A DNA stretch of 64,000 bases from Escherichia phage FL33. This document shows, piece after piece, positions 522 to 52,162 of this stretch. The stretch is taken from the sequence record PP400788; one strand, given 5' to 3'. Made by a program: the position numbers and the translations under genes. The first letter of the stretch is position 1; each line of letters starts with the position of its first letter. Under the pieces are notes generated by a model, which saw only the letters and a list, made by a program, of their open reading frames with translations, made no database searches and was not told the DNA's origin.

Positions 522-2501
522 ATGACTTTATTATCTCCGGGCATTGAGCTCAAAGAAACTACGGTTCAAAGCACCGTTGTTAATAACTCTACTGGTACAG
601 CAGCTTTGGCCGGTAAATTCCAGTGGGGTCCTGCTTTTCAGATTAAACAGGTTACAAATGAAGTAGATTTAGTTAATACTTTTGGTCAACCTACAGCTGA
701 AACTGCTGATTATTTTATGTCTGCAATGAATTTCTTACAATATGGAAATGATTTGCGAGTTGTGCGTGCTGTCGATAGAGATACCGCTAAAAACTCATCT
801 CCGATTGCTGGTAATATTGAATACACTATTTCAGCCCCAGGTAGTAACTACGCGGTTGGAGATAAAATCACGGTTAAGTATGTTTCAGAAAATGTTGAAA
901 CAGAGGGTAAAATTACCGAAGTAGATGCTGATGGAAAAATTAAGAAAATTAATATTCCTACCGCAAAAATTATCGCTAAAGCGAAAGAAGTCGGTGAATA
1001 TCCAGCATTAGGTTCTAACTGGACCGCGGAAATTTCTTCGTCTTCCTCTGGTTTAGCTGCAGTAATAACTCTTGGAAAAATTATTACTGATTCCGGTATT
1101 TTATTAGCTGAAATTGAAAATGCTGAAGCTGCTATGACAGCGGTTGACTTTCAGGCAAATCTCGAAAAATATGGAATTCCAGGAGTAGTAGCTCTTTATC
1201 CAGGCGAGTTGGGCGATAAAATCGAAATTGAAATCGTATCTAAAGCTGACTACGCAAAAGGTGCTTCTGCATTACTCCCAATTTATCCAGGTGGTGGAAC
1301 ACGCGCATCTACTGCCAAGGCAGTGTTTGGATATGGACCACAAACTGATTCACAATACGCTATTATAGTTCGTCGTAATGATGCTATTGTTCAAAGCGTT
1401 GTTCTTTCAACAAAGCGTGGTGAAAAAGATATTTACGATAGTAACATCTATATTGATGACTTTTTCGCAAAAGGTGGTTCAGAATATATTTTTGCAACTG
1501 CACAAAACTGGCCAGAAGGCTTCTCTGGAATTTTAACTCTGTCTGGTGGATTATCATCAAATGCTGAAGTAACAGCAGGAGATTTGATGGAAGCCTGGGA
1601 CTTCTTTGCTGACCGTGAATCCGTTGACGTTCAGTTGTTTATTGCGGGTTCTTGTGCCGGTGAATCTTTAGAAACAGCATCTACTGTCCAAAAACACGTC
1701 GTTTCAATTGGGGATGCTCGCCAAGATTGCTTAGTATTGTGCTCACCACCGCGTGAAACTGTAGTTGGAATTCCTGTAACTCGTGCTGTCGATAACTTAG
1801 TCAATTGGAGAACTGCAACGGGTTCATACACTGATAATAACTTTAATATCAGTTCAACCTATGCAGCAATTGATGGTAACTACAAATATCAGTATGACAA
1901 ATATAATGATGTAAATCGCTGGGTTCCATTAGCAGCTGATATTGCCGGTTTATGTGCAAGAACCGATAACGTTTCTCAGACTTGGATGTCTCCAGCTGGT
2001 TATAATCGCGGTCAGATTCTTAACGTTATTAAACTTGCTATTGAAACTCGCCAAGCTCAGCGCGACCGTTTATACCAAGAAGCTATCAACCCAGTAACTG
2101 GTACAGGTGGTGATGGTTACGTATTATATGGTGATAAAACAGCTACTTCTGTTCCTTCTCCATTTGATCGTATTAACGTTCGTCGTCTGTTTAATATGTT
2201 GAAAACGAATATCGGACGTAGTTCAAAATATCGTTTGTTCGAATTAAACAACGCGTTTACTCGTTCATCATTCCGCACAGAAACTGCCCAATACTTACAG
2301 GGAATTAAAGCTCTCGGTGGAATTTATGAATATCGTGTAGTTTGCGATACAACAAATAATACTCCGTCAGTAATTGATAGAAATGAGTTTGTTGCAACAT
2401 TCTACATCCAACCGGCTAGAAGCATTAACTACATTACCTTGAACTTCGTAGCAACTGCTACTGGTGCAGATTTCGATGAGTTAACTGGTCTTGCAGGTTA
2501 A
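522..2501 (+). CDS. 18: tail sheath protein gp18
   Basis: 659-aa ORF, length and sequence as T4 gp18; position between 17 and 19. Confidence 0.97.
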   Translation: MTLLSPGIELKETTVQSTVVNNSTGTAALAGKFQWGPAFQIKQVTNEVDLVNTFGQPTAETADYFMSAMNFLQYGNDLRVVRAVDRDTAKNSSPIAGNIEYTISAPGSNYAVGDKITVKYVSENVETEGKITEVDADGKIKKINIPTAKIIAKAKEVGEYPALGSNWTAEISSSSSGLAAVITLGKIITDSGILLAEIENAEAAMTAVDFQANLEKYGIPGVVALYPGELGDKIEIEIVSKADYAKGASALLPIYPGGGTRASTAKAVFGYGPQTDSQYAIIVRRNDAIVQSVVLSTKRGEKDIYDSNIYIDDFFAKGGSEYIFATAQNWPEGFSGILTLSGGLSSNAEVTAGDLMEAWDFFADRESVDVQLFIAGSCAGESLETASTVQKHVVSIGDARQDCLVLCSPPRETVVGIPVTRAVDNLVNWRTATGSYTDNNFNISSTYAAIDGNYKYQYDKYNDVNRWVPLAADIAGLCARTDNVSQTWMSPAGYNRGQILNVIKLAIETRQAQRDRLYQEAINPVTGTGGDGYVLYGDKTATSVPSPFDRINVRRLFNMLKTNIGRSSKYRLFELNNAFTRSSFRTETAQYLQGIKALGGIYEYRVVCDTTNNTPSVIDRNEFVATFYIQPARSINYITLNFVATATGADFDELTGLAG

Positions 2502-46465: not shown

Positions 46466-46782
46466 AAGTCCTCAACTTGAAAATCGTCTTTAAACAATCG
46501 GTTAACTATATGAGCTATTATATCACCATGACACGGCTTTGGTTTACATGTGCATCCTAGCCTCATTCCACGTAAAGGCTCTAAATGTGCTTTAGTTATT
46601 TCTCCGGATTTAATTCGACGTATAAAATCTTTTTTGAATAATTCAATGGCAGCCTCCCGGCTGCCAGCATCTTTACCGACGTAATTTCCCCAAAATGTAC
46701 CACGGTGAATATTAACATCAAAGTCGGATTTATATTTATTCACTACCTGGCATAGACGGCCCGCGCGGTGATAATTCGTCAT
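46456..46782 (-). CDS. hypothetical Cys/His-containing protein upstream of nrdA
   Basis: 108-aa ORF overlapping nrdA start; [11 protein letters not shown] motif. Confidence 0.6.
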
Positions 46783-46999
46783 ATTGTTTTTCCGTTAAAA
46801 CAGTAATATCATAGTAACAATCTGAAGAAGTTTTAACTGTAGAAATTTTATTATCAAAATACTCACGAGTCATTTTATGAGTATAATATTTTTTGCCATA
46901 AATGATAATAGGCTGATTTGGTCCTGGAACTTCTAACTCACTTGGGTTAGGAAGTGTAAAAAGAACTACACCAGAAGTATCTTTAAATCGTAAAATCAT
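46736..46999 (-). CDS. hypothetical protein
   Basis: 87-aa ORF between td and nrdA cluster. Confidence 0.5.
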
Positions 47000-47022
47000 A
47001 TATCCTCACAATTAATAATTAA

Positions 47023-47334
47023 TTACACCGCCATTTTTCCTTTCAAGACGCCGTGGGACTGATAATCTTTGAGAACGAAATCTTTAGGCCTGAGTTTAAG
47101 AATGTATTCCAATTGTTCTTTAGTAGAAAGATAGCGGAATTTATAAGGCAATCCGCCTATTACCAGTTCACAAAGCTCTTTAGGTTCACGACGCAAAATT
47201 TCTTTACATTGTTCTACGTGATTCATATAGATATGAGTATTACCACCGGAAAATATCAAATCTCCCGGAATAAGATTACACATCTTAGCTACAATATGAA
47301 CTAACGTAGCATATGATGCAATATTAAATGGAAG
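47023..47334 (-). CDS. td: thymidylate synthase, exon 2
   Basis: 103 codons LPFNIASYATLVHIVAKMCNLIPGDLIFSGGNTHIY... to stop, continuing exon 1 ...VDVFLG. Confidence 0.95.
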   Translation of the reverse strand, partial: LPFNIASYATLVHIVAKMCNLIPGDLIFSGGNTHIYMNHVEQCKEILRREPKELCELVIGGLPYKFRYLSTKEQLEYILKLRPKDFVLKDYQSHGVLKGKMAV

Positions 47335-48350
47335 CATTATGTTCAGATAAGGTCGTTAATCTTACCCCGGAATTATATCCAGCTGCATGTCACCATGCAG
47401 ATCAGACTATATCTCCAACTTGTTAAAGCAAGTTGTCTATCGTTTCGAGTCACTTGACCCTACTCCCCAAAGGGATAGTCGTTAGGCATTTATGTAGAAC
47501 CAATTCCATTTATCAGATTTTACACGATAAGTAACTAATCCAGACGAAATTTTAAAATGTCTAGCTGCATCTGCTGCACAATCAAAAATAACCCCATCAC
47601 ATGAAATCTTTTTAATATTACTAGGCTTTTTACCTTTCATCTTTTCTGATATTTTAGATTTAGTTATGTCTGAATGCTTATGATTAAAGAATGAATTATT
47701 TTCACCTGAACGATTTCTGCATTTACTACAAGTATAAGCAGAAGTTTGTATGCGAACACCGCACTTACAAAACTTATGGGTTTCTGGATTCCAACGCCCG
47801 TTTTTACTTCCGGGTTTACTGTAAAGAGCTTTCCGACCATCAGGTCCAAGTTTAAGCATCTTAGCTTTAACAGTTTCAGAACGTTTCTTAATAATTTCTT
47901 CTTTTAATGGATGCGTAGAACATGTATCACCAAACGTTGCATCAGCAATATTGTATCCATTAATTTTAGAATTAAGCTCTTTAATCCAAAAATTTTCTCG
48001 TTCAATAATCAAATCTTTCTCATATGGAATTTCTTCCAAAATAGAACATTCAAACACATTACCATGTTTGTTAAAAGACCTCTGAAGCTTTATAGAAGAA
48101 TGGCATCCTTTTTCTAAATCTTTAAAATGCCTCTTCCATCTCTTTTCAAAATCTTTAGCACTTCCTACATATACTTTATTGTTTAAAGTATTTTTAATCT
48201 GATAAATTCCGCTTTTCATAAATACCTCTTTAAATATAGAAGTATTTATTAAAGGGCAGTCCTACAATTTAGCACGGGATTGTCTACTAGAGAGGTTCCC
48301 CGTTTAGATAGATTACAAGTATAAGTCACCTTATACTCAGGCCTCAATTA
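47335..48350 (-). mobile_element. td group I intron (1016 nt) carrying I-TevI
   Basis: Exon 1 ends at ...FLG with in-frame TAA as first intron codon; exon 2 resumes at 47334; boundaries placed by protein homology. Confidence 0.9.
47482..48219 (-). CDS. I-TevI: I-TevI GIY-YIG intron homing endonuclease
   Basis: 245 aa; MKSGIYQIKNTLNNKVYVGSAKDFEKRWKRH... with zinc finger and C-terminal DNA-binding domain. Confidence 0.95.
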   Translation of the reverse strand: MKSGIYQIKNTLNNKVYVGSAKDFEKRWKRHFKDLEKGCHSSIKLQRSFNKHGNVFECSILEEIPYEKDLIIERENFWIKELNSKINGYNIADATFGDTCSTHPLKEEIIKKRSETVKAKMLKLGPDGRKALYSKPGSKNGRWNPETHKFCKCGVRIQTSAYTCSKCRNRSGENNSFFNHKHSDITKSKISEKMKGKKPSNIKKISCDGVIFDCAADAARHFKISSGLVTYRVKSDKWNWFYINA

Positions 48351-48899
48351 ACCCAAGAAAACATCTACTGATCGTTGATACCACTGCAAATCCAAATAGC
48401 CATTACGCACATTAAACTGATAGAACATATGACAAGGCGGTAATGCCATCTGCTTGAGTTCAGCTGGATTCCATGCTGAAACAATTTGACGCCTATCATT
48501 TGGCAATTTTTTAATACGATCAATAACTTCTATAATTTGGTCTACACCACCAAAATCACGCCACTGTTTTCCATAAATTGGACCAAGTTCACCGCTATGG
48601 TATCCTAAATCTTTTGCTTGATTTTCGTAATTTTCATCCCAAACTGTTTTGCCTTGGATTAACGAATCATGTTGAATTAATCGCAAATCATTTACGTTAG
48701 TACTTCCTGACAAAAACCATATTAGCTCAGCAATACAAGCTTTCCAGGCGAGCTTCTTAGTCGTTACTGCAGGAAAACCTTTAGTTAAATCCCAGCGTAA
48801 TTTAGTACCGAACAAAGCAATTGTTCCTGTGCCTGTTCGGTCATCGGTTTCATAGCCATTTTCAAAAATGTCTTTAATTAAATCTTGGTATTGTTTCAT
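48351..48899 (-). CDS. td: thymidylate synthase, exon 1
   Basis: 183 codons MKQYQDLIKDIFENGYETDDRTGTGTIALFG... incl. active-site region ALPPCHMFYQF. Confidence 0.95.
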
Positions 48900-48944
48900 T
48901 TAGTACCTTATATAAATTATAATACATTTTATGAAGCTAAATAA

Positions 48945-49295
48945 TCAATACGGTTTAGCATCAAATTTTCTTTCAATTTCAGGCGTGAAATACAATTCTT
49001 TACCGCGTTTGGAAAAGCGACCAATAATATGATAATTATTCTCATCAAACGTAATATTGCCAATATCCATAGCTTTCAACCAAATATCGATATTTCTATC
49101 CAGTTTTATATCAAAATTCCAATACGGAGAACTATTACCGAAAATACTGCAAGCGGATTCAGTGCAATAACTGCTGCTATAAATCTTGTCTTTGGGAACT
49201 ACTAATTGATAGACGCCTTTGATAAACTGAGGACCCTGCCATTTTGGTTGTTTCGCGTCTTTTTCTAATAGAATAGGATAATAATTAAAGTTCAT
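48945..49295 (-). CDS. hypothetical protein inserted between frd and td
   Basis: 116 aa from ATG 49295 (120 aa if GTG 49307); no recognisable motif; fills a gap that is absent in T4. Confidence 0.55.
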   Translation of the reverse strand: MNFNYYPILLEKDAKQPKWQGPQFIKGVYQLVVPKDKIYSSSYCTESACSIFGNSSPYWNFDIKLDRNIDIWLKAMDIGNITFDENNYHIIGRFSKRGKELYFTPEIERKFDAKPY

Positions 49296-49315
49296 ATTTT
49301 CCGCCACGCGTTATT

Positions 49316-50145
<830 letters not shown>

Positions 50146-50155
50146 ATTATTTTCC

Positions 50156-50398
50156 TTAAACAGACTTTTTCACAATTTTCCAATCAGCTTTAAACTGTTC
50201 AACGTCAGAGTGGTAAATCCAGAATCCTGCGCTTTCTCCATCCTCATAAAGAGGGCATCCATCGCATTCATCTTCCCATCCCATGTCACGTAAAAGATGT
50301 TCAGCTTTTTCAACAAGTTCAGAATCTTTACCTATGATATTAAAATACCATTTACCTCTAACTTCTGAATCTTTAATGCTCTGGCGTTGTAATCTCAT
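50156..50398 (-). CDS. hypothetical protein
   Basis: 80-aa ORF with early promoter and SD upstream. Confidence 0.55.
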   Translation of the reverse strand: MRLQRQSIKDSEVRGKWYFNIIGKDSELVEKAEHLLRDMGWEDECDGCPLYEDGESAGFWIYHSDVEQFKADWKIVKKSV

Positions 50399-50423
50399 TT
50401 TATTCTCCTTAGTTGATAGGGTA

Positions 50424-50453
50424 ATAGTATCACACTACTACCCTACTGTAAAC
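50424..50453 (-). promoter_or_regulatory. T4-type early promoter
   Basis: Minus strand GTTTAC-18 nt-TACTAT then AAGGAGAATAAA ATG at 50398. Confidence 0.55.
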
Positions 50454-50833
50454 TACTTTTTGAAAGTTTTTCGCAAAAGTTCAATGATTTCATCTACATT
50501 GTTTTCGTCTACAATGCAGTGAATTTTTGTTACGCCAGAAATCTTGTCTTCGACTTCATCTTCTTCAGAAGTCGGTTCTTTATACTCACGAAAACAATGA
50601 AATTCGTCTTCACAAATTTCTAAAAGTCTATCTTTGAGGTAAAAATGCTTTCCATTTGCGCATTCAATGTGTTTTACTGCTTTATATCCATTAGCGACAG
50701 AAACTTCTTTAACTTCAAACCATCCGCCATTATCTCGAATAGCTTTAACTATTGATGAATTAGAACGTGGGCTATAATTAATAAATGTATCAATAAGTCT
50801 TGGAACAAGTTCATACTTTCTACCAGTATACAT
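50453..50833 (-). CDS. hypothetical protein
   Basis: 126-aa ORF. Confidence 0.55.
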   Translation of the reverse strand: MYTGRKYELVPRLIDTFINYSPRSNSSIVKAIRDNGGWFEVKEVSVANGYKAVKHIECANGKHFYLKDRLLEICEDEFHCFREYKEPTSEEDEVEDKISGVTKIHCIVDENNVDEIIELLRKTFKK

Positions 50834-50853
50834 TGTGTTTTCCTCATTTTAAC

Positions 50854-50870
50854 GGGGCTGTAATAGCCCC
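50854..50870 (-). terminator. hairpin
   Basis: ggggct-gtaat-agcccc stem-loop between ORFs. Confidence 0.45.
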
Positions 50871-50877
50871 TTGATAA

Positions 50878-51108
50878 TTATTGTTCAATCAGTCCCATAT
50901 AAAATTCTGCATCTTCAGAATCCATGCCATCACAATATTCATTAGCCATAAAGCGGGTGAGGTCTTCAAGAGGACCTTCAATGACAATAGAAAAATTGCA
51001 ATAATTGGGATCATCATGAATACTTGTGATACTAAGTTCAGGATAACGATTACGAATAATTTCTTCAATATATTCAAAATCAACGATGTCAATATCAACT
51101 TTAGCCAT
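50878..51108 (-). CDS. hypothetical acidic protein
   Basis: 76-aa ORF downstream of gene 32. Confidence 0.5.
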
Positions 51109-51212
51109 ATTATTTTCCTCTTTTAATCATCAGCAGTATTGCCGATAGTTGTATAGTACCATGGAATGACAAGAATGTAAACTGTTTTGTGAAAAAATTT
51201 TAAAATAAAAAA

Positions 51213-51231
51213 GGGGACCTCTAGGGTCCCC
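51213..51231 (-). terminator. intrinsic terminator after gene 32
   Basis: ggggacc-ctaga-ggtcccc hairpin followed by T-run on minus strand. Confidence 0.8.
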
Positions 51232-51253
51232 AATTAATTAGTAATATAATCTA

Positions 51254-52162
51254 TTAAAGGTCATTCAAAAGGTCATCCAGGTCCGTGTCATCAGCACCAG
51301 ATGAACTGCCAGAGCTTGAGCTCATAAAATCATCTTCAGTTTTTGTTTTGAAGTCATCAACATTGAATGCATCCAAATCATCAGCAACTTTATCAGCTTT
51401 CTTAGCGGCAGTTGCTGCGGCACCGCCCATAGCAGCAGTTCCCATAACTTGACTGAACTTAGTGCTCAGTTCTTCAAACGATTTGAATTTATCTTTAGAA
51501 GTCATTTCAGAAAGGTCAACCATTTGTTCGAACAGTTCTTTCTGGAAAGATTCATCATCAATGTTTGGAATCGCAGATTGATTCAGGAATTTAGATTCGT
51601 CGTAGTTACTAAAACCAGAAACTTGTTTAACTTTCAGTACAAAGTTAGCACCTTCCCACGGACAAGTTACATCAACCGGAGTTTCACCCATTTCAACATC
51701 AACTGCAATCATTGCATTGATTTTATCCCAGATTTTCTTACCGAAACGGTATTTAAATACTTTACCTTCATTTTCTGGAGCAGCTGGGTCTTTTACTACA
51801 AGAATGTTAGCCCAGTAAGAAGTTTTACGTTTAACAAGACCGTACTCTTTATTGTCAGTGTTATACAAATCATTTTTACTGATGTACTGACATACTGGAC
51901 AAGAATCGTAATCACCGTGGGTAGATGAACAGTTTTCAATATACCATTTACCATTTTTCTTGAAACCGTGATTTACAAGAATTGCGAATGGTGCTTGTTC
52001 ATCATTTTTAGACGGAAGAAAACGAATTACTGCTTGACCGTTACCCGCATTATCGAGTTTCAGTTTCCACTCGCCTTTATCTTCAGAAGAAAAACCACCT
52101 TTATTTCCAGCCAGTTTAGCCATTTGTGCAGCGAGTTCAGCAGTAGATTTACGTTTAAACAT
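51254..52162 (-). CDS. 32: gp32 single-stranded DNA-binding protein
   Basis: 302-aa ORF; [17 protein letters not shown]... N-terminus and acidic Ser-rich C-terminal tail. Confidence 0.97.

Follow-up and report, generated by a model that had tools for sequence, protein, structure and literature searches.

A small gene between frd and td of Escherichia phage FL33 is probably an old operon resident lost from T4

The frd-td junction of FL33

T4 is the annotation reference for the T-even phages, and genes that are missing in T4 therefore tend to be taken for insertions. T4 is also the phage in which the dNTP-synthesising enzyme complex was defined. At the T4 junction of frd (dihydrofolate reductase) and td (thymidylate synthase), the two genes overlap in the sequence ATGA, with no open reading frame (ORF) between them; an earlier sequence-only reading of the DNA analysed here described this arrangement, and comparison with T4 bears it out. 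Free-standing endonuclease genes, such as those for SegG and MobE, do occur between conserved genes in T4-like genomes. The ORF described here, which lies between frd and td in another T-even phage, is like these seg and mob genes in being small, in lying between conserved genes and in being present in some T-even phages and absent from others. It differs from them in having no GIY-YIG or HNH motif, a different predicted fold and at most half the size, and its position is conserved across genera whereas they are sporadic.

The closest described genes are the copies of RB32ORF229c in T2, T6, RB14, RB27, RB32, RB33, RB51 and FL33/FL34. Their products have 115-116 residues and are 96-100% identical to the FL33 protein, their position between frd and td is identical, and in T2 the same repeats, matching at 11 of 12 nt, flank the gene. 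Relative to RB32ORF229c, the FL33 allele has one extra Ser and YC in place of CF at residues 41-44; this variation sits in the least conserved loop of the family, which is also the loop with the lowest pLDDT. By homology, the ORF is the already known gene annotated as hypothetical under the label RB32ORF229c, and belongs to the family PHROG 1928. A literature search by that gene label found no paper that mentions the gene, and a wider search on frd and td in T-even phages returned unrelated work.

The window analysed is a stretch of 64,000 nt from the T-even phage FL33 (PP400788), in which all genes of the frd-td locus lie on the minus strand (Table 1). Read along that strand, the order is gene 32, frd.3, frd.2, frd.1, an 81-aa ORF, frd, the ORF in question and td exon 1, followed by the td intron with I-TevI and by td exon 2. 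The interval between frd and td exon 1 runs from 48900 to 49315 and is 416 nt long, where the sequence-only reading had given about 415 bp. As that reading also stated, it contains one long minus-strand ORF of 116 aa (from ATG at 49295) or 120 aa (from GTG at 49307), which ends with TGA at 48947-48945. The ATG stands 20 nt after the TGA of frd (49318-49316), and is the favoured start because the close homologues all begin MNFNYYP, T2 is annotated so, and GGCGGA is found 4 nt upstream. The GTG start was rejected, having no Shine-Dalgarno (SD) sequence, with homologues starting at the ATG. Plus-strand ORFs of 58 and 33 aa within the interval were likewise rejected; one of them is annotated in phage 132. 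The td gene starts at the ATG at 48899 and is preceded by an AAGG that T4 lacks, its td being tied to frd by the ATGA overlap.

Table 1. Positions of the features discussed. Coordinates are those of the window unless another locus is named.
Feature	Coordinates	Strand	Basis
Gene 32	51254-52162	-	gene order
Strong terminator-like hairpin just after gene 32 (GGGGACC...GGTCCCC and T run)	51213-51231	-	
Early-promoter-like site before frd.3	51153-51181	-	
Early-promoter-like site before frd.1	50424-50452	-	
81-aa ORF (RB32ORF231c, PHROG 3183), between frd.1 and frd; stop overlaps frd start	49900-50145	-	
frd (dihydrofolate reductase), upstream neighbour	49316-49900	-	ORF list, homology
Left repeat copy TAAATGAAATAA, spans frd stop codon	49311-49322	-	T4 alignment
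Alternative in-frame GTG start (120 aa), judged unlikely	49305-49307	-	no SD; homologues begin at ATG
Weak SD-like GGCGGA, 4 nt upstream of ATG 49295	49300-49305	-	read from sequence
116-aa CDS including stop; RB32ORF229c orthologue, PHROG 1928 member	48945-49295	-	ORF, homology, model
AT-rich spacer: TTGATT, 18 nt, TATTAT; TATAAT at 48921-48916	48916-48948	-	promoter-like resemblance
MotA-box-like TTAGCTTCA in the spacer, one mismatch	48940-48932		
AAGG SD for td, 6 nt before td ATG	48906-48909	-	sequence
Right repeat copy TAAATGAAACAA, spans td start codon, 420 nt from left copy	48891-48902	-	T4 alignment
Reading frame of td exon 1 (thymidylate synthase), downstream neighbour; it continues into the group I intron	48348-48899	-	homology
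td, whole gene	47023-48899	-	
I-TevI (245 aa), in the td group I intron	47482-48219		
68-aa gene, locus L004 (fFiEco06)	1699-1905		
68-aa gene, locus L008	2188-2394		
68-aa gene, locus L027	749-955		
Four small genes, locus L031 (Logan contig SRR28387184_149)	2245-3518		

A TATAAT-like box had been pointed out upstream of td together with the AAGG, and both are present. The box is weak evidence for a promoter, because promoter-like hexamers are common in this AT-rich DNA; a sigma-70 scan of 48200-51400 gave 21 promoter-like sites, against 14.2 +/- 3.7 in shuffles. The spacer also has a MotA-box-like sequence. The strict MotA-box pattern has no match between 48900 and 51250, so that the TATAAT shows no more than a likeness to the consensus. 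Ahead of frd.3 and of frd.1 stands an early-promoter-like site (TTTACA, 17 nt, TACTAT, with a TG upstream); the two sites are nearly identical and probably drive a transcript that includes the ORF. The sole terminator-like site in the scan of 48200-51400 is the hairpin 3' of gene 32, and none was found within the frd-td interval. Because no terminator stands between that of gene 32 and td, and the early-promoter-like sites lie upstream, we infer that transcription of the ORF is probably early and shared with frd and td, starting from promoters ahead of frd.3 and frd.1. A scan of 46500-51500 against Rfam (E <= 0.1) matched no RNA family, and gave no sign of an RNA element in the interval.

It is worth adding that td of FL33 is interrupted by a group I intron with I-TevI. 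The Rfam scan gave no match for this intron, presumably since the endonuclease ORF splits it. In T2 the ORF is present and td is uninterrupted, so that intron presence and junction state assort independently.

Coding evidence and distribution of the family

One reading of the ORF is that it is a chance, unexpressed reading frame in an AT-rich spacer. Its SD sequence is weak, and at least two GenBank records (NC_054931 and MZ417521) leave the gene without annotation, both of which would fit. However, among Tequatrovirus orthologues (T2 and four IMG/VR contigs) dN/dS is 0.02-0.08 at a dS of 0.18-0.33, which argues that the gene is under strong purifying selection. The frame and motifs are kept down to 25% identity, and the protein matches the PHROG 1928 HMM at E = 1.3e-33, with residues 8-116 aligned to profile positions 2-125 of 126. 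In addition, AlphaFold2, run on a 24-sequence alignment, generates a confident model (pLDDT 91.4, pTM 0.83). Selection and conservation together already refute the chance reading, to which we give practically no weight; judged by these comparisons, the ORF is a genuine gene and not a chance frame. In base composition it is like the rest of the phage, with GC of 33.3% and GC3 of 30.8%, compared with a GC of 36% for the whole window and a GC3 of 25-29% for its neighbours.

With regard to the annotation of the gene, the T2 RefSeq record NC_054931 lists the flanking genes only, and the phage 132 record (MZ417521) has in its place two small spurious ORFs, of which one is antisense. Other records label it as a putative homing endonuclease (in the BASEL phages), a putative glucose-1-phosphate adenylyltransferase or a putative dihydrofolate reductase. 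These homing-endonuclease and enzyme labels are unsupported.

In the 801 bp from 48700 to 49500, identity is 100% with Escherichia phage FL34 and 97% with T2. This region can be aligned along 80% or more of its length with 355 phage records, among them T2, T6, RB27, RB32 and RB33, where the gene is labelled RB32ORF229c (hypothetical). A homologue was found by tblastn in 580 records, 362 of them at 90% identity or more (Tequatrovirus) and 218 at below 60% (phages of Klebsiella, Enterobacter, Salmonella, Erwinia and others), counts which mirror the sampling of isolates and not independent lineages. Within Tequatrovirus, the ORF occupies the frd-td junction in about 70% of records, including those of T2 and T6. 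A word-indexed homologue search returned 4 proteins only; the exhaustive HMMER search gave 23 clusters at 50% identity. Two of these clusters, P0021 (an RVT_1 protein) and P0025, gave multi-stretch matches that we consider spurious, and were rejected as family members. The PHROG 1928 family is restricted to T4-like phages, and no paralogue of the ORF was found in the window or in T4.

The position of the gene is the same outside Tequatrovirus. The homologue comes directly after frd, its start overlapping the 3' end of frd, in JD18 (Jiaodavirus), S16 (Gelderlandvirus), EcS1 (Kagamiyamavirus) and CIP9 (Kanagawavirus). Next comes td, in some cases behind one or two more small genes; in JD18 the homologue overlaps the td start with its 3' end. 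The homologues that follow frd in other genera and in metagenomic contigs have 27-45% identity. Mapping by tblastn gave the order frd, homologue, td in all 14 of the IMG/VR loci and in the phage loci that carry the family, and four metagenomic members of the most divergent type, found by HMMER, also lie between genes for DHFR and thymidylate synthase. The order frd, ORF, td thus held in every locus examined. Between the window and other genera, identity is 31-45% for the ORF, 45-53% for Frd and 77-83% for Td, which suggests that the ORF has diverged roughly as Frd and its neighbours have, if somewhat faster.

The region is mosaic. The Frd of the window is about 87% identical to that of T2 and T4 and 99-100% identical to that of some isolates, while the ORF next to it and Td exon 1 have 97-99% identity to T2. 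There are therefore two or more Frd alleles that circulate independently of their neighbours.

Occupants of the junction and its history

In Tequatrovirus the frd-td slot occurs in three states: empty, with the RB32ORF229c gene, or with an unrelated 68-aa gene. Other lineages have up to four small genes there. The empty state was identified with an 80-bp probe across the T4 junction, at an E-value cut-off that only a contiguous match could pass. The contiguous ATGA junction was found in 35 phage records (T4 with its laboratory variants, RB55, RB59 and a few isolates), against 362 with the ORF and about 135 with the 68-aa gene. A six-frame profile search of the complete T4 genome found no homologue (best E = 0.42).

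Between the homologue and td, many contigs as well as S16, EcS1 and CIP9 have another ORF, 108-123 aa long. This ORF, called copy B here, is a distant paralogue: S16 gp154 aligned to the family profile with a probability of 95.9% in hhalign (E = 5e-9), and copy B matches PHROG 1928 itself at E = 5e-38 (S16 gp154) and 1e-33, the same PHROG that distant family members match. Copy B (S16 gp154, EcS1 ORF254, CIP9_060) shares with the ORF its PHROG, its slot and the motifs QKxW, HGxY and GRFxKxG, the last followed four residues later by F. It differs in being only about 21-26% identical to the window protein, in having an extra PTIxxYKxxP segment after QKxW, and in being absent from the window and from Tequatrovirus.

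The 68-aa gene (PHROG 9550; also in JS98) shares the slot with the ORF but is unrelated in sequence. It is found at the frd-td junction in about 135 records, and in about a quarter of the Tequatrovirus records. In CIP9 and contig L027 it is an additional gene just before td, alongside the PHROG 1928 genes. In the second class of Tequatrovirus (fFiEco06, SHFML-26, PYPS2T) it is the sole occupant of the junction, shares an ATGA overlap with each of the two genes beside it, and has 68% identity to its counterpart in CIP9. The Tequatrovirus and Dhakavirus (JS98, CLBP2) versions of the 68-aa gene are 97-98.5% identical, and it has 43% identity to a gene of Phapecoctavirus, outside the Straboviridae. 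The Phapecoctavirus relative suggests lateral movement, and because of it the 68-aa gene appears more mobile than PHROG 1928. Some records label it a flagellar biosynthesis protein. In a divergent T4-like Logan contig (SRR28387184_149), four small genes of 148, 106, 95 and 76 aa extend from the DHFR gene to that for thymidylate synthase; by its gene content, this contig shows that the slot can expand far past what cultured phages have.

The sequence-only reading described the ORF as an extra one inserted between frd and td, at a site typical of mobile or accessory cargo. It is extra relative to T4, but the reading as an insertion of mobile cargo is not supported, the junction having this gene in about 70% of Tequatrovirus records. 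The proposal would be that of a recently acquired mobile or selfish element in the lineage of this phage, either like a homing endonuclease or a moron. It has some points in its favour, in that the ORF is absent from T4, the slot is polymorphic, a short direct repeat flanks the gene and could be read as a target-site duplication, some GenBank records call it a putative homing endonuclease, and endonuclease genes of this kind do lie between conserved genes of T4-like phages. Against it, the protein is small (116 aa), has no nuclease or other domain and is predicted to adopt a fold unlike GIY-YIG or HNH. Homologues of 27-45% identity occupy this place in five or more genera, their synteny never broken and their divergence broadly following that of Frd, which is not the sporadic distribution of a homing endonuclease. 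Nor does the gene resemble a moron or foreign cargo, its GC being typical and the interval having no terminator-like site. Strong purifying selection and the native base composition argue in the same direction, as does the rarity of the empty state (35 records against 362). The mobile-cargo reading is by these comparisons already largely refuted, and we regard it as very improbable. The comparison of T-even junctions that had been proposed for detecting a patchy insertion did reveal a variable slot, with its three states in Tequatrovirus; where a family member is present, the order of frd, ORF and td was unbroken in the loci examined. The same ORF stands at the same junction in most relatives, though the family and literature searches gave no function for it.

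Alignment to the window shows that T4 is without exactly 420 nt. In the window and in T2 the 420 nt are bounded by a direct repeat, TAAATGAAAYAA, whose copies agree at 11 of 12 nt. Were these copies to recombine, the TGA of frd would be joined to the ATG of td, giving the T4 sequence GTATATAAATGAAACAATACC. The repeat alone gives no polarity, because TAAATGAAA is a common motif at gene boundaries (10 copies in the window, where 3.4 are expected). It could be a functional convergence, and an old insertion that arose by recombination at this microhomology would fit it just as well. What gives the polarity is how the states are distributed among phages, on the basis of which we consider it likely that the ORF, as the orthologue of RB32ORF229c, has long belonged to the frd-td operon of the Tevenvirinae and was lost in T4, and not inserted in FL33. 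The loss of 420 bp in T4 would probably have occurred by recombination at TAAATGAAAYAA, creating the well-known ATGA overlap. The usual polarity is reversed here, and the textbook frd/td overlap appears to be a derived state, the scar of a deletion.

The ancestral order was likely frd, PHROG 1928 copy A, copy B, the 68-aa gene and td, with later differential loss by lineage that was possibly aided by recombination between phages. Most Tequatroviruses, including FL33, would have kept copy A, a minority only the 68-aa gene, and T4 and a few relatives none. The ORF itself is a conserved hypothetical gene of an ordinary kind that had already been catalogued; two points are worth correcting, in that there was apparently loss in T4 and not gain here, and that the gene belongs to a small Tevenvirinae family with tandem paralogues.

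A further observation on T4 is that it also lacks the 81-aa ORF, with a 71-nt gap in that place, so that a second gene of the operon is missing from it. RB32ORF231c is present in T2 and in fFiEco06.

Predicted fold and possible functions

The ORF was searched against Pfam (E up to 10) and NCBIfam (E up to 1), with no match, in line with the earlier statement that it has no GIY-YIG, HNH or other recognised motif. Pfam run on 24 family members gave no nuclease family and nothing meaningful. Profile searches of the PDB with two alignments gave noise only, for example TagH and dynein, at E = 0.03 or worse. In a structure search of BFVD the only significant neighbours were uncharacterised proteins of other T4-like phages. 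The homing-endonuclease label was rejected, there being no nuclease domain and the fold being unlike GIY-YIG or HNH.

The protein is of about 13 kDa, mildly basic and rich in aromatic residues, and is predicted to form a small five-stranded barrel with a helix between strands 3 and 4. In the AlphaFold2 model, strands at residues 6-12 and 27-34 are followed by short ones at 38-40 and 49-51 and by 63-65, and then by a helix (69-78), a short strand (81-83) and a long hairpin (87-97 and 100-105). The order of these elements, read from the secondary-structure string of the model and not from its coordinates, fits an OB-like arrangement. OB-fold domains of the ssDNA/RNA-binding type (S1, RPA/Teb1, HIN, cold-shock) were taken for comparison. 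No significant structural similarity was found between the 116-aa model and solved OB domains. The family is compact and confidently modelled, with an apparently novel fold, no PDB neighbour and a strictly conserved address, and would thus be a reasonable target for functional work.

In alignments of 24 and 28 sequences, Q16, W19, G27, Y29, G92, F94, K96, G98 and F103 are invariant or at least 90% conserved, and the window protein carries all nine. K15, K18 and R93 are mostly conserved, and most family members are mildly basic (pI 8-9). On the model, the conserved residues map to the β1-β2 loop, strand 2 and the β4-β5 turn. In OB folds these are the elements of the ligand face. A ligand would be bound by the β1-β2 loop (K15, Q16, K18, W19), strand 2 (G27, Y29) and the hairpin (G92, R93, F94, K96, G98). 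We propose, tentatively and with rather more doubt than confidence, that the protein is a dispensable early accessory protein that uses this modelled face to bind nucleic acid of the ssDNA/RNA type or a conserved partner. Single-stranded nucleic acid or a conserved protein partner would be the most plausible ligand, and the protein would act as a dispensable modulator in the pre-replicative phase.

The same gene with the same history could instead encode a host-takeover or counter-defence factor, which would inhibit a host protein such as an immune sensor or a metabolic enzyme and not bind nucleic acid. Small, uncharacterised early T-even proteins often act in this way. There are precedents in IpII, which acts against GmrSD, and in small T2 proteins that bind metabolic enzymes of the host and that bNACHT11 senses. 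The gene is dispensable, T4 and the phages with only the 68-aa gene being without it; the family is confined to T4-like phages, and between genera it evolves faster than Frd and Td. Within Tequatrovirus, however, the protein is near-invariant (97-98% amino acid identity, compared with 87% for Frd), with the low dN/dS given above, and such conservation is atypical of a gene in an arms race. PADLOC gave no match for the ORF, and no similarity to known anti-defence proteins was seen. A counter-defence role would also leave unexplained the fixed place of the gene in a nucleotide-metabolism operon. We regard it as a possible reading that is on balance doubtful.

Two published gene sets were considered in this connection. 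The gene is not one of the T2 activators of bNACHT11 (gp6, gp9, gp46 and gp57), since those, being numbered by their order in NC_054931, are near the genome start of that record and the locus of the ORF is at about 138.5 kb and unannotated there. Nor is it included among the accessory genes screened by Silas et al.

The fixed place between frd and td, with the order held in every locus examined, would be explained if the protein were a dedicated partner of the DHFR-thymidylate synthase module, either as a subunit for assembly or channelling in the dNTP complex or as a regulator of frd and td expression. The overlaps with the 3' end of frd in other genera and with the td start in JD18 make co-translation likely, and the strong conservation within the genus would also fit. 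If so, the gene would add a component to the classic phage module of nucleotide synthesis. However, T4 lacks the gene entirely, which speaks against an essential role in the very phage that defined the complex, and about a quarter of the Tequatrovirus records have the unrelated 68-aa gene in the slot. Tight packing with overlapping start and stop codons is general in these genomes, and linkage between adjacent conserved genes can keep a passenger without any functional tie. A partnership of this kind therefore seems unlikely. We rate as less likely still its more specific form, in which PHROG 1928 would be a third component of the module, a barrel of new fold that scaffolds or regulates the enzymes or their mRNAs. 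This would explain the strict frd-X-td synteny, the overlapping frames and the tandem duplication across the Tevenvirinae, and were it true, the field would have been led astray by its model, T4, from which the gene had been deleted.
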